This document shows, one piece after another, positions 7,473 through 38,717 of a stretch of 64,000 bases of DNA. This DNA is from an uncultured Planctomycetaceae bacterium. GTDB lineage: Bacteria; Planctomycetota; Planctomycetia; Planctomycetales; Planctomycetaceae. The stretch spans positions 960,001 to 1,024,000 of the forward strand of contig CAWFAK010000005.1 of the NCBI GenBank assembly GCA_963813715.1, in the 5' to 3' direction. The notes below the pieces were generated by a model. It searched no databases. It saw only the letters and a list, made by a program, of their open reading frames with translations, and was not told where the DNA came from. A program made the translations under genes and the position numbers. How positions within the stretch are numbered: position 1 is the stretch's first letter; every line of letters starts with the position of its first letter.

Positions 7473-8850
7473 TTGGCAAACATCGAACCGGTCGATCGCT
7501 TCCTGGACCAGAACGGGGCGCGCTTCGTCGATGAGCTGAAGGAATTCCTCCGCATTCCCAGCGTGAGCGCGAATCCCGCCCACAAGCCGGACATGGAGCG
7601 GGCGGCCGAATTCGTCCGCTCCCAGCTCGAGCAGGCGGGCGCCAAGGCCCAAATCTTCAAGACGGCCGGGCATCCGATCGTCTACGGAGAGACAGAAGGT
7701 GCCGAAAACGGGCTGACGGCCCTGGTGTATGGGCACTACGACGTGCAGCCGCCGGAACCGCTCGACGAATGGATCTCGCCGCCATTCGAGCCGACCGTTC
7801 GCGACGGCTACATCTACGCCCGCGGCGCCACCGACGACAAAGGGCAAGTCTTCACGCACATCAAGGCGATCGAGGCCTGGAGCAAGACCGTCGGCCGCCC
7901 GCCCGTCAACGTGAAGTTCGTGATCGAGGGGGAAGAAGAGGTCGGCAGCGACAATCTCGATATCTTCCTGAAGGAGCAGAAGGACCTGGTGAAGTGCGGC
8001 GTGGCGGTGATCAGCGACACCAGCCAGTACGCGCCCGGCATCCCCGCAATCACTTACGGCCTCCGCGGCATTCTCGCCTGCGAGATCGTGCTCCACGGCC
8101 CCAATCGCGACTTGCACAGCGGCATTTTCGGCGGCTCGGTCGCCAACCCGTGCAACATGCTGGCCCGGCTCGTCGCCAAATTGCACGACGACAAGCAGCG
8201 CGTGCAGATTCCCGGGTTCTACGACGACGTCCTGCCCCTCACGGCCAAGGAACGCCAGGAATTCGCCAAGCTCAAGTTCGACGAAGCGGCGTATCTTGCC
8301 GACCTCGGTGTACCGGCGGTTTGCGGCGAAGAGGGCTTCACCACGATCGAGCGGCGCTGGGCCCGTCCCACGTGCGACGTCAACGGCATCTTCGGCGGCT
8401 ACAGCGGACCCGGTCCCAAGACGATCGTGCCTTCCCGTGCCACGGCCAAGATCACTTGCCGGCTGGTCCCCAATCAGCAGCCGGAGAAGTTGTTGGCGTC
8501 GATGCAGAAGTTCCTCGTCGCCAATTGTCCGCCCGGCGTGCGGCTGGAGTTCAAGCCTCAGCATGGCTGCATCGGAGTGGTCATGGACTCCGAGAGCCGT
8601 TACATGAAAGCGGCCCGCGAGGCGATCGCCGTCGGCCTTCGGCGCCCAGCCGGTGATGATCCGCGAAGGGGGCTCGATCCCCGTGGTGACGACCTTCCGG
8701 GACGTCCTGGGAGTCGATACACTCCTCCTGGGTTGGGGCCTCAATTCGGACAATCTGCACAGTCCGAACGAGCGCTTCACTCTTGCCGACTTTCACCGCG
8801 GCACCAAAGCCAGCGCCCACCTGTGGAACGAGCTGGCTCAGCAACATTGA
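7473..8850 (+). CDS. M20 family dipeptidase (ArgE/DapE-like); frameshift ~8640
   Basis: Motifs [38 protein letters not shown] and NLHSPNE. GAGGAGG RBS precedes TTG 7473. Confidence 0.9.
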
Positions 8851-33220: not shown

Positions 33221-34513
33221 CTAAACAGCGCGGATAATCGCGGCAGCGCTTTGACCCATCGCCGTGCGATTGACGGTCAGGGCCGTCTTCTTTCGCAGAT
33301 CGAGCGGCTCGCGGTGGACGACCCGCAGCCGGAACCGCGGATCGGGAGTCTCGTAATTGAGCGTCATCGGCAGCGAGCCGTGCTCGAGCGCCAGCAGGCT
33401 GCCCGCCAGCTCGACCGCGCCCGAACCCGCGTCGAAGTGGCCGAAATAGCTCTTGAGTGCCGTCACCGGAATGGATTCGGCCTCGTCGTCGAAGGCCCGG
33501 CGGAAGGCGCAGGCCTCGACCAGATCGTCCCGCTGCGTGCTTTTTCCGTGGGCATTAATGTGCCCCAAATCCGAGGGCCGCAGGGACGCCTGCCGCAGGC
33601 TGGAGCGAATGGCGCGGACCAGGCCCGTGCCCCCGTTGCCGTTCGAGGAGCCTGTGCCGTCGCAGCCGGCCGCGACGCCCAGCACCTCGGCGTAGATTCG
33701 GGCTCCGCGACGTGCGGCATGGCTGTACCGCTCGACGACGAACGCCGCGCCCCCTTCGCCCACGATCGTGCCGTCACGGTCGAAGTCGAAGGGGCGGCAC
33801 GCACGGAGCGGATCGTCGACCCGCCGTGACAGTCCGTCAAACAGGCTGAGCTTGGCAATGTCGACCGGATGCACGTTGGAGCTGGAGGCGCCGACGATCA
33901 TGCAGTCGGCCGCGCCGCGGTCGATCACGTTGACCGCTTCGGCCAGCGCCAAGAGCGCCGACGACTCGCGGCACGTGATCGTGTTGTTGGGCCCCCGCGC
34001 ATCGAATTCGATCGAAACGTGGCAGGCGGGCATGTTGGGCAACTGCCGCAGAAACCAGAGCGGACAGATTTCGCCCATCGCTTGTTCGTTGAATCGCTCG
34101 TAGGCGAAGGCGCCCTTTTCGTCGCTCGAGGCGGTCACCGCGTCGGTGAGTTCCTGCGGCGTTGTGGAGATGCGGCCAGCCCCGAAGGAGACGCCCAATC
34201 GGTCCGGATCGACCGAGCCCCGCACCAGGGCGGCGTCGTCCATCGCCAAGGTCGAGGCGGCGACGCCCAGCTGGATGTCGCGGGACATGACCTTGATCAA
34301 CTTTTTATTGGCAATGTAGTCTTCGGGCGCGAAATCGTGGATTTGGGCGGCTAGGCGCGTGGGCAGATGGTCGCTGCGAAAAGCGCGCAGATAGCCGATT
34401 CCGGATCGGCCCTGCATCAAGCTTTTCCAGAACGCATCTTTGCCGATGCCGATCGGGGAAACGACCCCGACACCGGTGATGACAATCCTGGTTGGAATGT
34501 CCCCAGCCTTCAT
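33221..34513 (-). CDS. Beta-ketoacyl-ACP synthase (FabF-like) paralogue with Glu at the catalytic Cys position
   Basis: Motifs IVITGVGVVSPIG, LPNMPA, GPNNTITCRESS, RPFDFDRDG..GEGG, NAHGKST and KSYFGH. Confidence 0.85.
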   Translation of the reverse strand: MKAGDIPTRIVITGVGVVSPIGIGKDAFWKSLMQGRSGIGYLRAFRSDHLPTRLAAQIHDFAPEDYIANKKLIKVMSRDIQLGVAASTLAMDDAALVRGSVDPDRLGVSFGAGRISTTPQELTDAVTASSDEKGAFAYERFNEQAMGEICPLWFLRQLPNMPACHVSIEFDARGPNNTITCRESSALLALAEAVNVIDRGAADCMIVGASSSNVHPVDIAKLSLFDGLSRRVDDPLRACRPFDFDRDGTIVGEGGAAFVVERYSHAARRGARIYAEVLGVAAGCDGTGSSNGNGGTGLVRAIRSSLRQASLRPSDLGHINAHGKSTQRDDLVEACAFRRAFDDEAESIPVTALKSYFGHFDAGSGAVELAGSLLALEHGSLPMTLNYETPDPRFRLRVVHREPLDLRKKTALTVNRTAMGQSAAAIIRAV

Positions 34514-35337
34514 GAGACGACCCAGCGGCCGAGGCACGGCTCCGGTCGCAGCACCGCGATATCGGCTTTTCAACGTCCCGCCGGTGTCCCGCCGTCGAGA
34601 GGTCTCAAAGCTCGATCAACTTTGCCGTAAACCACTTCGCCCGAATTCTGCGGCCCGCCCGTGCGTGCCGCTGCCGATTTCTCTGCCGACCCTATTTCTT
34701 TATCGGCAATCTCCCCAGGGAGGGGAGACGGGTGATCGAGCAAACGGGGGACTGTTTTCGTCAAACAGCCGAAGCAGCCAACCTGCGCAGTCAGTCGACG
34801 CTCATGCCACTCGCAGCGCTTGACCCGCGTGAGTTTTCCGCGTGAATTTACAAGGGCGATTTTTCTAGCCGTCGCCAACCGCAGGATAAGTCGTAACTAC
34901 TGATCCCCATATGTGTTTGCTAGCCTGACCCATGTCAAATTAGACCGCAGATCGCGGGGCGCGTCAAGAACAATCCGCTACGGGCGGCACAAGGGGGCAA
35001 GTCGCCGGGTTCGGTAGAATCGGCCATGTCGACGCGTGGTGCGGCATCTCCAACGTCGCAGGACGGGTGTCGCGGCCAGTTCCCCGACGCGGGCGACACC
35101 GAAGTGGGGCTGAGGCCGATTGTGCCGACGGAATCGATTCTTCTGCGGCACCCTACACGCGACTGGTCATTTCGCGTCGCAGGGAGGGGGAGCGATGGTT
35201 CGTCGAGAGGGCGTTCAGCAGAGAAGATTGCGGCCGCGGCTAAAGAAAAACAGCCGGGAGAATTCCGGCGGTGGGGCAGGAACCACAAGAATTCAGCGTC
35301 CGGCTGCCATTCCCATTTTACTGCGGAAGGGGCGGGC

Positions 35338-35368
35338 TTGCAAACTTCGGGCAAGGCTGGATTAGAAT
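35338..35368 (+). promoter_or_regulatory. Possible sigma70-type promoter upstream of tRNA-Leu
   Basis: TTGCAA-N19-TAGAAT. Spacing is suboptimal. Confidence 0.3.
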
Positions 35369-35480
35369 GCGCGGGCTGCATCTGGAACTCCTTAACCAAG
35401 ATGCGACGGCGGCTGCTCCGGATGGCAGTGCCGCCTCGACGAAGCGACGACGAGACAAATCCGACATCAGCCGTGCTCAC

Positions 35481-35562
35481 GCGAGAGTGGCGGAATTGGC
35501 AGACGCGCCAGACTTAGGATTTGGTGCCGCAAGGCGTGGGGGTTCGAGTCCCCCCTCTCGCA
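35481..35562 (+). tRNA. tRNA-Leu (anticodon TAG), CCA not encoded
   Basis: GCGAGAG/CTCTCGC acceptor stem, D-loop GGAATTGGCAGAC, anticodon arm CCAGA-CTTAGGA-TTTGG, long variable arm and GGTTCGAGTCC T-loop. Confidence 0.97.
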
Positions 35563-35820
35563 TTCCCCCGCAGCTGCCCCCTGTGACGTAGAATTCGCGC
35601 GCCGTCACGCGTTCTCCAAGACCTGTTCAGACGTCTCTGTCTCGGCCGCGCACAACTCGCAGAGTCCGGGGACGCACTATCTTCACTCGAGACGCATGAT
35701 TTTTATCCGCTGTGGACGTGCTTCGCCACGCGGCTTCCAAACGTGCGTTTTGCAAGTCCCTCTTGCGTTTTTTGGACCGGTCAACTACAAGACCGAAGCC
35801 CCGAGGTAGTTCTTGGCACC

Positions 35821-36075
35821 GACATGGATGTCAGAGTCAAGACCCATCCGAAGCGCCGACCGGTGGCACGAATTCGGGCCGCCCCGGCAGGCGGAGTAAC
35901 CGCCCCTCACGCGCGAGGAGCCTCAAGGCAACGTGCCGGCATGGATGCCGATAACCGGCCGCTTTCTGCACCGGAGCGCTTTCGTGGCGAACCCGGCAAA
36001 GTGGCCCGGATCGCGTCGCACGACCCAGTGGCCGTCGCGATCTGACAAGGATGTAAAGTGCCGGAAAGGAGGCCT
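35821..36075 (+). promoter_or_regulatory. Putative multi-site CsrA-binding leader (or CsrB-like sRNA)
   Basis: Hairpins GACA-TGGA-TGTC (35821-35832), CGGCA-TGGA-TGCCG (35937-35950) and ACA-AGGA-TGT (36045-36054), plus RBS AAGGAGG (36066-36072). Confidence 0.6.
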
Positions 36076-36080
36076 CGATC

Positions 36081-36866
36081 GTGTTAGTTCTCACCCGCAG
36101 AGAAAACGAGAAAATCTTATTGCCCGACGTGGGCGTGACCGTCGAATTGATGTCGGTCACTGGTAACCGCGCCCGCTTGGGCATCAGCGCTCCCGATAAC
36201 ATTCGCATTCTTCGCGAAGAAGTCGCCGTCAACCAGGCTGTTCTCAAGCAGGCCACGGTTCGCGGTTCGATGTCGCGAGAATTCGTTCATGCCTTTCGCA
36301 ACCGGCTCAACGCGGCCATCCTGGCGGCCGAGACCGTGCGGATGCAAATCGAAGCCGAACGCCTCGACGATACGTCAAGCACGCTCGATCGCATCGTGAC
36401 CGAGCTCCGGGCGATGGCGTCGATGGTCGAAGGACCGCAGCCGGTCGCCGCGCCGCCGCTTGTCGCGTCAGGAGTGGGCGAGCACCGGCCTTGGAAGGCG
36501 TTGGTGGTCGAGGACGACGCCAACGAGAGCTTGCTGCTGGCCGGAATCCTGCGGATGACGGGGTACGAGGTCGACGTCGCCGGTGACGGTGCGGACGCTC
36601 TCGACTATCTCCATTCGCACGCGCGGCCCGACGTCGTGCTGCTCGACATGAAGCTGCCGAAGCTCGACGGGGCCACCACGCTCGGTCGCATCCGCCGGGA
36701 TCCCAATCTCGAGGGGATGAAGGTCTACGCCGTCAGCGCGACGCCGCCCAAGCGGTTTGGCGTGAAGACGGGACCGGGCGGCATCGACCGTTGGTTCTGC
36801 AAGCCTCTTGATCCGCGGGAGCTGGTGCGCCAACTCGATAGCGAGCTGAGCGCCCTCGATCGCTGA
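36081..36866 (+). CDS. CsrA-domain / HisKA-like / receiver-domain fusion protein
   Basis: N-terminus MLVLTRRENEKI...RARLGISAP..IRILREEV (CsrA). Middle HAFRNRL (H-box-like). C-terminus VVEDD...LLDMKLP...AVSA...CKP (intact REC). Confidence 0.88.
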   Translation: MLVLTRRENEKILLPDVGVTVELMSVTGNRARLGISAPDNIRILREEVAVNQAVLKQATVRGSMSREFVHAFRNRLNAAILAAETVRMQIEAERLDDTSSTLDRIVTELRAMASMVEGPQPVAAPPLVASGVGEHRPWKALVVEDDANESLLLAGILRMTGYEVDVAGDGADALDYLHSHARPDVVLLDMKLPKLDGATTLGRIRRDPNLEGMKVYAVSATPPKRFGVKTGPGGIDRWFCKPLDPRELVRQLDSELSALDR

Positions 36867-36886
36867 CGCCCAGGCGTCAGCGGTTT
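36861..36886 (+). terminator. Hairpin overlapping the stop of the CsrA-REC gene (weak terminator or stability element)
   Basis: CGCTGACGC-ccag-GCGTCAGCG followed by GTTT. Confidence 0.4.
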
Positions 36887-37222
36887 GCCGAATTCGGCCG
36901 TCGTCATCGATGGCTGCGTTGCAGTAAGCAGACGGCGCGGATGCAGGATCCGCGCCGCTTCTGAGATCGCACAACTTGCCGGTCCGGCGCCCCCACGCCC
37001 GTGCTGGGCTCGTTCAGCACGGATCGGCGGCCGCTTCAGCTGGGAAAGACACCCACCGTGCAGCCAAAACAATCGCCGCGCTCGCTGCCCCCTTCCGGTC
37101 GCGAGGCCGCCCCGTCACGCAATCTGGCTTTCGACTTCCAGCGGTCGGAGTTTGACACGGCCGCTCAGCCCTACGAAACATTTCAGACCACCACCGACGA
37201 GCCGCTCCCCCGACATTGGAAC

Positions 37223-38717
37223 ATGAACGGCATCAACATCGGCGAAAGTCTCCGTCGCGCCCTCGAGGTGTGCGAGGCGGCCTTCGACGACATCGTCGAT
37301 AAAAGCGCCGACGGTGTGGTCGTCGTGAACCCCGTCGGCACGATCTGTTTTGCCAACGCGGCCGCCGAATCGATGCTGGGCCGCTCGACGGGCGAACTTC
37401 TGGGCGAACCGTTCGGAATGCCGGTGGGGGCCGGCGAAACATTCGAGATGAAGCTGCCCTCGACCGATCAGGGCTGCCACTTCGCCGAAATCCGCGTCGT
37501 CGCCACCCATTGGCAGGGCTCGCCCGCCTTGCTGGCCACCCTGCGCGACGTCACGCAGCGCAATCGGGCCCTGCGCCGTCGCGACGAATTCCTGGCCATG
37601 CTGTCGCACGAACTGCGCAATCCGCTGGCGGCCATCTCCAGCGCGGCGAGCGTGCTGGCCCGCCCCGACCTCGACGGCGACGCCTTTGCCAGAGCCCGCG
37701 GCGTCATCGAACGGCAGTGCGCAAATGACCCGCCTGCTGGCCGATCTGCTCGACGTCTCCCGCGCGACCCGCGCGAAGATCGAGCTGCGCAAGAAATGCC
37801 TCGACCTGGTCGACGTGATCATCGAAGCCGTCGACGCGGTGCGCGGCGAAGCCGAGGCCGTCGGCCAGACCGTGTCGCTGGTTGCCAGTGTCGACATGAT
37901 TCCAGTCGACGGCGACGCGGTGCGCTTGCACCAGGTGTTTGTGAACCTACTTTCCAATGCGTCCAAGTTTTCCGGTGCCGGAAGCCCAATCCGGGTGATG
38001 GTGGGGATTGAGGAGGATCAGGCGGTCGTCAAAGTCCGCGACCAGGGAATCGGGATGACGCCCGAGGTGTTGGAGGCCGTGTTCCAGCCCTTCGTCCAGC
38101 TCGACTCGTCGCTGGATCGGCCCGGCGAGGGCCTGGGTCTCGGCCTGGCGATTGCCGATTGCTTGATCAAGCTGCACGGCGGCGCGGTGCGGGCGTCGAG
38201 CGAAGGCCTGGGAAAGGGGAGCGAGTTCTGCGTCCGCCTGCCCCTGTCTCGCTCGCGTCCCGAGTCGGCGCCCACGTTAGCCGACGCCGCGACGGAGACG
38301 GCGCTACGCGTGGTGATCGTCGAGGACAACGCCGACGTGGGCGAGATGCTCAAAACGTTGCTGGAGTGCGTGGGGCATCAGGTGGAGATTGCCGCCGACG
38401 GCCTGACCGGCGCGGAACTGATCGAACGCATGCATCCGGACGTGGCCCTAATCGACATCGGCCTGCCCGCGCTCAACGGTTACCAGCTCGCGCAGCGAAT
38501 TCGCTCCGACGACGCCCATCGGGACGTCTACTTGGCGGCGCTCACCGGCTACGGACAAGCGGCCGACCAGGAGAAGGCCCTGTCTTCGGGCTTCGATACT
38601 CACATCGCCAAGCCCGTCAGCGTCGAGCACCTGCGCAGACTGCTTGCTTCGCGACAACGAGTCCGCCTCAACGTGGCGGCAGCCGAAGAAGCGCAAGCCG
38701 AGCTACCCGCGCGTTGA
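37223..38717 (+). CDS. PAS-HisKA-HATPase-REC hybrid histidine kinase; frameshift ~37720; start uncertain
   Basis: PAS (DGVVVV...FANAAAE), SHELRNPL, NLLSNASKF, DQGIGM, GLGLGL, then receiver IVEDN...LIDIGLP...AKP. No TM segment seen. Confidence 0.9.

Follow-up and report, generated by a model that had tools for sequence, protein, structure and literature searches.

The usual control of CsrA proteins is external and comes from sponge RNAs or FliW. A gene that joins a CsrA domain to a receiver domain, and that is preceded by GGA hairpins of the type that CsrA recognises, therefore raises a question: is this leader an operator through which the gene controls itself, a site for other CsrA proteins, a separate titrating RNA, or an unrelated structure? 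We addressed this question in a planctomycete assembly (63% G+C, 7.49 Mb) for a window of 64,000 nucleotides (G000:C5:960001-1024000), to which all plain coordinates below refer. The records of close relatives are titled Planctomycetaceae. A preliminary description of the region had offered two readings of the hairpin array, an autoregulatory 5' UTR and a cis-encoded CsrB-like sponge RNA.

Three GGA hairpins and a double-GGA Shine-Dalgarno precede a CsrA-receiver gene

The downstream gene had been described as a CsrA fusion, and the Pfam matches bear this out: CsrA covers residues 1-49 (E 6e-15) and Response_reg residues 141-252 (E 9.8e-18). The CsrA domain passes the curated Pfam cut-off (PF02599, 55.4 bits vs 27), and residues 1-49 align with E. 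coli CsrA 1Y00 (E 9.5e-8). In this alignment the fusion retains L2, L4, R6, R7 and an arginine opposite E. coli R44, which we take to be the key RNA-binding residues. That arginine (R45 in the fusion) is invariant in 14/14 diverse orthologues, as are the receiver aspartate D189 and the lysine K241. According to PMC7652899, R44A is a binding-surface mutant of CsrA. The linker of 90 aa between the two domains has no Pfam match at E up to 0.001. It holds the motif H-A-x-R-N-R-L-N (residues 67-77, window 36279-36311), in which H70 is conserved in 13/14 orthologues and R73 and L76 in 14/14; in our estimation this motif resembles a kinase H-box/DHp helix.

When the letters were rechecked, all three hairpins were found exactly where they had been placed, namely GACA-TGGA-TGTC at 35821-35832, CGGCA-TGGA-TGCCG at 35937-35950 and ACA-AGGA-TGT at 36045-36054 (hairpins A, B and C). 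Their reported spacing of about 110 nt corresponds to GGA-to-GGA distances of 117 and 106 nt. Positions 36045-54 are identical to the SELEX core ACARGGAUGU and 35822-31 deviate from it at R only. The fourth motif, AAGGAGG, had been taken for the ribosome binding site; it occupies 36066-72 inside GGAAAGGAGG, 8 nt before the GTG at 36081. Further GGA triplets had also been noted, and 35821-36075 indeed holds nine GGA on the sense strand against an expectation of 4.0 at the genome rate; the antisense strand has one.

SELEX gave RUACARGGAUGU as the CsrA consensus, its GGA lying in a short hairpin loop, and RsmE reads an ANGGAN hexaloop (PMC7652899). Hairpins A, B and C each present a GGA in such a loop, as ANGGAN or ACA-RGGA-UGU; the apical loop of hairpin A is A-U-GGA-U, and hairpin B is present in both minimum-free-energy folds with a paired probability of 0.09 for its GGA. 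As in CsrA-repressed leaders, a GGA site, here GGAAAGGAGG, overlaps the Shine-Dalgarno (SD). Between hairpin C, with its GGA at 36049, and the two SD GGAs the distances are 14 and 19 nt; one CsrA dimer is described as bridging two sites when these are separated by 10-63 nt, best at about 18 nt (PMC7652899). Both strands of the genome together hold 134 copies of the octamer GGAAAGGA and 4 of the decamer GGAAAGGAGG.

Table 1. Features of the CsrA-receiver locus, with the other CsrA loci of the genome and the hairpins of distant orthologue leaders
Feature	Position	Strand	Remarks
tRNA-Leu	35481-35562		upstream of the leader
Putative -35 hexamer TTGCGT	35763..35768	+	columns (nearly) invariant in 16/16 leaders of alignment A2; invariant GTCCCT just before
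Putative -10 hexamer TACAAG	35786..35791	+	T, A, -, A, A invariant; follows the -35 after a variable 17-nt spacer
Predicted 5' untranslated leader	35797..36080	+	about 284 nt
Hairpin A, extended	35811..35842	+	lower stem 6 bp, middle 3 bp, upper 3-4 bp; GGA 35826-28
CCCAUCC	35843..35849	+	complementary to GGAUG
Conserved block CACGCGCGAGGAGCCUC	35908..35924	+	nearly invariant in alignment A3
Hairpin B	35937..35950	+	CGGC stem, A-U-GGA-U loop; GGA 35943-45
Hairpin C	36045..36054	+	ACA-AGGA-UGU, exact SELEX core; GGA 36049-51
Double-GGA Shine-Dalgarno GGAAAGGAGG	36063..36072	+	
CsrA-linker-REC gene	36081..36866	+	GTG start, 261 aa
3' UTR hairpin	36934..36956	+	9 bp, G+C-rich, U-poor tail; read from sequence
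Ten further CsrA loci	C7:807279, C9:409150, C5:1103197, C5:1429550, C9:282240, C12:177083, C4:25279, C14:176976, C7:346500, C16:343267		
Hairpins of distant clades			CGACA-NGGA-UGUCG; GGGC-AGGAN-GCCC; CCAGC-AGGGAC-GCUGG; GUGGAA-AGGAU-UUCCAC (GUGAAA/UUUCAC in L028)

The hairpins lie between a putative promoter and the gene

Two alignments of orthologue leaders were used: A2, comprising 16 non-identical leaders of proteins that are 66-99% identical, and A3, comprising 12 long leaders with 74% mean column identity. In A2, conservation begins abruptly at 35756 with GTCCCT (35756-61). The two conserved hexamers that follow form TTGCGT-N17-TACAAG, a putative sigma-70-type promoter that would place the transcription start site (TSS) near 35797. 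Within the -10 hexamer the invariant A2 columns are T51, A52, A54 and A55; a consensus promoter scan did not flag TACAAG because its -10 rule demands T at position 6. A terminator-like call at 35751-67 is better read as the -35 region. A terminator of the tRNA-Leu or of an upstream sRNA was rejected as its main reading: TTGCG, the 3' arm, is the sole invariant part, and L064 and L031 have lost the 5' arm. Two other candidates were discarded: a sigma-54 reading of TGGCAC (35814-19), which has no -12 element and whose hexamer is absent from the orthologues, and coding by a 100-aa ORF (35743-36045), which in close orthologues is broken by 1-nt indels and by an indel of ~62 nt and has no comparable frame in L014 and L062.

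Parts of the stretch are represented in 19 RNA-library runs from 16 studies, and we compared four runs from four studies, using assembled contigs in place of reads. The start points are 35809 (X2), 35812 (X5) and 35830 (X3) and the ends 36989, 36988 and 36994, respectively, with no loose ends there; X2 has a single contig (35809-36989) spanning leader and ORF. The contig starts fit the predicted TSS and, with the exception of X3, whose contig starts inside hairpin A, precede all three GGAs. As evidence on transcript extent, contig ends of this kind are a weak hint. In X1, one contig (35356-36144; 8 differences, one gap) begins ahead of the tRNA and crosses the leader into the ORF, possibly through transcriptional read-through or through DNA carry-over in the RNA library. 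Three of the four runs show depth gaps among their contigs between 35570 and 35791; uncovered stretches were not counted as evidence.

A terminator scan found no terminator-like site on the + strand between 35800 and 36080. The same scan missed the hairpin at 36934-36956, which is likely a 3'-end element: in three studies the RNA contigs stop 32-38 nt further on. The loop and closing pair of this hairpin read GCAGGA. An Rfam 15 scan of 34500-37500 at E up to 10 returned only tRNA above threshold and no match in the intergenic region, and a BLAST search of the genome gave no second copy of the leader, the best other match having E = 0.049 over 32 nt.

Hairpins and Shine-Dalgarno are conserved in close orthologues

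Full-length relatives of the protein were present at 23/44 loci returned from species-representative genomes, and a metagenome scan gave 24/46 loci that match the fusion protein from residue 1. In the long leaders of A3, the three GGA loops are kept in 12/12 and the SD block GGAAAGGAGGCC is invariant. Three of these leaders lack ~62 nt between sites A and B. Hairpin B keeps its stem in 11-12/12 leaders and its GGA in all 12, while the N positions of the loop vary. A tetraloop would need a closing A-U pair, which only 5/12 leaders retain at site A and 8/12 at site B; the conserved loop is therefore the hexaloop A-N-GGA-N.

In four of the 16 A2 leaders, those of proteins 66-69% identical, one ACAAGGATGT hairpin and the SD are all that follows the shared promoter block. 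This ACAAGGATGT element is kept in 15/16 A2 leaders, including the four short ones as their only hairpin (L059 has one change), and the distance from hairpin C to the SD element is fixed at 12 nt in 16/16. Because the four short leaders carry promoter block, ACAAGGATGT and SD only, the minimal module is, as judged from these alignments, one hairpin plus SD, and the three-hairpin array an expansion peculiar to the window's clade.

Covariation had been proposed as a check on the hairpins, and it helped for one of them. Over the 12 leaders, 92.9% of the alignment cells of the A/B/C structure pair, vs 27-41% with the pairing partners slid. For hairpin A, which RNAalifold also keeps, 92.3% of cells are paired, and both partners have changed in two pairs and one partner in four; two such double changes were matched by 43/500 shuffles. 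Hairpins B and C are nearly invariant, which makes covariation uninformative for either.

Two further conserved stretches might pair with the GGA sites. CCCAUCC is found in 8/9 of the A3 leaders that hold this stretch (L062 differs), is deleted in L013, L016 and L082, and is the partner of site A when 35797-36115 is folded to minimum free energy. The CACGCGCGAGGAGCCUC block is either an extra GGA site (35917-19) or an anti-SD. RNAalifold pairs 35908-24 with the SD/start region (36069-36084), with pairs that scarcely vary and of which 0 changed on both sides. Single-sequence folds are inconsistent as to the SD partner (35908-24 or the 5' end of the leader), and no compensatory change was seen. 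The GGAUG:CCCAUCC and SD:35908-24 pairings could hide the GGAs.

Statistics within the genome are by themselves no more than suggestive

A genome-wide count against background had also been proposed, and its outcome depends on the motif. ACANGGATGT occurs 21 times in the 7.49-Mb genome (both strands), twice at this leader. With Poisson approximations for the cluster expectations and E-values, and with motif definitions picked after the site was seen, CANGGATG (573 occurrences) is enriched, its sole same-strand triple within 250 nt being this leader (0.026 expected), whereas ANGGATG (one triple cluster genome-wide, this leader, vs 1.08 expected) and a structure-only rule (NGGA tetraloop closed by at least 3 Watson-Crick pairs; 19 clusters genome-wide vs about 13 expected) give weak statistics. 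Taken by themselves, these genome-internal statistics are no more than suggestive. Folding of the 538-nt intergenic region, likewise put forward earlier, gave a stability no greater than that of shuffles (z = -0.75), and global fold stability was rejected as an argument for the leader. Structure-only clustering and loose hairpin counts (5.1 per kb) were set aside as well, as they do not discriminate the locus.

The hairpin signature follows the fusion gene into distant clades

Leaders of proteins with 38-47% identity cannot be aligned to that of the window, yet they have GGA-loop hairpins of their own on other stems (Table 1). For a count across all relatives, we took positions -290..-1 of 42 leaders, i.e. 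the window plus 41 loci. Left out were the near-identical L011, L055, L056, L060, L061, L072 and L083, L012 with too short an upstream DNA, and the C-terminal fragments L066, L080 and L081. A strict rule was applied, which demands an ANGGAN hexaloop closed by at least 3 pairs and has a genome background of 0.133 hairpins per kb per strand.

Under this rule the 42 leaders hold 46 hairpins on the sense strand and 4 on the antisense strand, compared with 2.08±1.27 (maximum 6) in 200 dinucleotide shuffles. This is a 22-fold sense-strand enrichment over shuffles in rows that are related and not independent trials; no fewer than a dozen distinct clades or singletons contribute, where 0.05 hairpins are expected per leader. 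At least one strict hairpin is present in 33/42 leaders, and of the 9/42 with none, three (L063-65) have the tetraloop form. The rule passes over site C and the single hairpin of L063-65, in which 2 pairs extend beyond the hexaloop. GGAAAGGA is found at the SD (within -30..-1) in 33/42 orthologue leaders, and in L027, L032 and L070 the SD itself lies inside an ANGGAN loop.

Counting the fusion, 11 loci of the genome exceed the Pfam cut-off for CsrA (12 matches are listed). Most of the ten others encode 66-85 aa; C16:343267 looks frameshifted, with its match in two pieces. On the CsrA model the six best small paralogues score 66-90 bits and the fusion 52. As a control we applied the strict rule to the leaders of these 10 small paralogues, which hold 1 hairpin in total. 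The hairpin feature therefore goes with the fusion gene.

From these comparisons, the three-hairpin array and the double-GGA SD are real conserved motifs, and it is the conservation in orthologue leaders, not the single-genome counts, that shows them not to be a product of chance.

The leader as a putative CsrA operator

We consider it probable that 35797-36080 is the leader of a monocistronic CsrA-receiver mRNA and acts as a putative CsrA operator, probably an autoregulatory one. Among the two readings offered at the outset, the autoregulatory 5' UTR fits the indirect evidence and the sponge is unsupported. We favour the former because the hairpins lie 3' of the promoter-like block and of the contig starts with no terminator before the ORF, because hairpin C stands 14-19 nt from the double-GGA SD, and because GGA-loop hairpins recur in leaders at 38-47% protein identity.

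In the mechanism that we propose, the three A-N-GGA-N loops would offer the shape recognised by CsrA/RsmE, and the GGAAAGGAGG SD would be single-stranded. A CsrA-domain dimer would dock at hairpin C and bridge the 14-19 nt to the SD GGAs, so that the ribosome would be excluded and translation would drop at high free CsrA activity. Hairpins A and B may add avidity or recruit more dimers. The binder would most likely be the gene's own product, resulting in negative autoregulation, and phosphorylation of the receiver domain would presumably set the activity of the fusion protein.

Parts of this arrangement have precedents. The E. coli csrA leader likewise belongs to a CsrA-family gene and carries GGA sites, four in number with one over the SD (PMC7652899, on Yakhnin et al. 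2011). The leader described here differs in its unrelated sequence, its phylum, its CsrA-linker-receiver product, its strict ANGGAN hairpins and conserved tandem-GGA SD, and in that its sites are predicted. In glgC, a hairpin just 5' of the SD tethers CsrA and leads to SD occlusion; there, too, a GGA hairpin sits just upstream of an SD GGA with a spacing within 10-63 nt, the hairpin being the high-affinity site and the SD the lower one (PMC7652899). Unlike glgC, the present leader serves another target gene and has two more upstream hairpins, 106 and 117 nt apart, beyond the bridging of a single dimer. In loop sequence and short stems the hairpins match RsmE-hcnA and SELEX CsrA sites. To our knowledge, the specificity of a planctomycete CsrA domain has never been measured.

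Other CsrA proteins of the genome may be the ones that read this operator. Under such a scheme of cross-regulation only, one or more of the ~10 small paralogues would bind the leader, and the fusion gene would stand below them in a cascade; we regard this as somewhat unlikely. That the six best of the paralogues out-score the fusion on the CsrA model speaks for it, as does the fit of the sites to a consensus defined for canonical CsrA/RsmE (PMC7652899). Against it, the hairpin plus SD signature tracks the fusion gene down to 38-47% identity and is missing from the paralogues' own leaders (1 hairpin in 10), and the RNA-binding arginine of the fusion is kept in 14/14 orthologues. The fusion and the small paralogues may both bind the leader, and cross-regulation and autoregulation are inseparable by computation.

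An unlikely, more elaborate possibility is that the leader has a dual function in a phospho-switched CsrA circuit, being an operator and at the same time an mRNA-borne decoy for the ~10 small paralogues. The neighbouring hybrid histidine kinase, perhaps together with the conserved H-box-like histidine of the linker, would then phosphorylate the receiver and alter how tightly the CsrA domain binds RNA or how it oligomerises, and growth from one to three hairpins would tune the buffering. If true, this would be the first CsrA set by two-component phosphorylation of itself, and not by sponge RNAs or FliW.

It is distinctly unlikely that the leader is structured for a reason independent of CsrA, i.e. 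as a riboswitch-like element, the site of another protein, an RNase/processing signal or a ribosome standby site, with the GGA loops incidental to purine-rich SD-like sequence. The long conserved leader does contain GGA-free blocks (35908-16, 36020-36035), and the RNAalifold long-range pairing sequesters the SD. However, distant clades keep the A-N-GGA-N loop on differing stems and share no single fold, the region matches no Rfam family, and the gene served encodes the very domain that reads the GGA-loop motif.

We hold it very improbable that the array is a separate CsrB/Rsm-like RNA made from the same promoter, ending before the ORF and titrating CsrA proteins. Repeated GGA hairpins on one RNA are what the leader shares with CsrB, CsrC and RsmX/Y/Z; it has three of high quality and nine GGAs in 255 nt, and the step from one to three hairpins in the window's clade goes beyond the needs of SD occlusion. 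Those sponges, however, are stand-alone RNAs that end at terminators of their own and carry far more repeats (roughly 18 in CsrB; PMC7652899), whereas here the array is continuous with the ORF. The reading is disfavoured because there is no + strand terminator-like site between hairpins and ORF, no second copy and no Rfam sponge family, and because one unbroken contig covers leader and ORF; the fixed 12 nt between hairpin C and the SD in 16/16 leaders also argues against it. Chance occurrence of the motifs in a G+C-rich intergenic region, with which the ANGGATG and structure-only counts would agree, is scarcely credible given their conservation in 12/12 close leaders and the 22-fold sense enrichment in 42.

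The gene itself belongs to a catalogued combination, since a census quoted in PMC2222644 (its reference 12) lists response regulators whose output domain is CsrA. A review, PMC12471899, loosely places E. coli CsrA among the response regulators. Our literature searches returned this census mention only, and no study of the function of a CsrA-receiver fusion or of its leader. The leader is probably CsrA-operated, and probably autoregulatory, in a phylum and on a gene architecture from which such leaders are not known to have been described. CsrA-receiver fusions, catalogued and unstudied, suggest direct phospho-control as a third control route. For this family the leader offers a sequence-defined RNA target, with three hairpins plus SD and natural one-hairpin variants, and an orthologue exists in the cultured strain Lacipirellula limnantheis I41 (L032). 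In Planctomycetota, moreover, this leader is a candidate new cis-regulatory RNA motif that Rfam 15 lacks.

Neighbouring genes and other hairpin clusters

In the window, as in relatives L013-L016, the tRNA-Leu lies directly 5' of the leader; the short-leader clade has a coding region in that place. Downstream, from 37001, Pfam identifies a PAS/HisKA/HATPase/REC hybrid histidine kinase. It is contained in two overlapping frames (37001-38011 and 37686-38717), and the frame shift falls within the HisKA domain, near 37715-37725. In relative L015 (Illumina-based) the kinase is a single 546-aa ORF, and in L016 (long-read) it is split as in the window. An assembly indel would explain the split frame, as would a genuine pseudogene.

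Elsewhere in the genome, a search for at least 3 ANGGAN hairpins in 400 nt gave 14 clusters vs 2.7 expected, several of them in coding sequence, including window 7684-7980. Tight ANGGAN triples are found at G000 C2:110790-110863 (-) and C7:747684-747770 (-), just 5' of apparent start codons and with the SD inside a hairpin; these two are candidate CsrA-regulated leaders. Finally, C5:5023 and C7:876034 have the same 24-nt context around ACATGGATGT, with one flanking base near the end differing, and may be paralogous leaders or a repeat.
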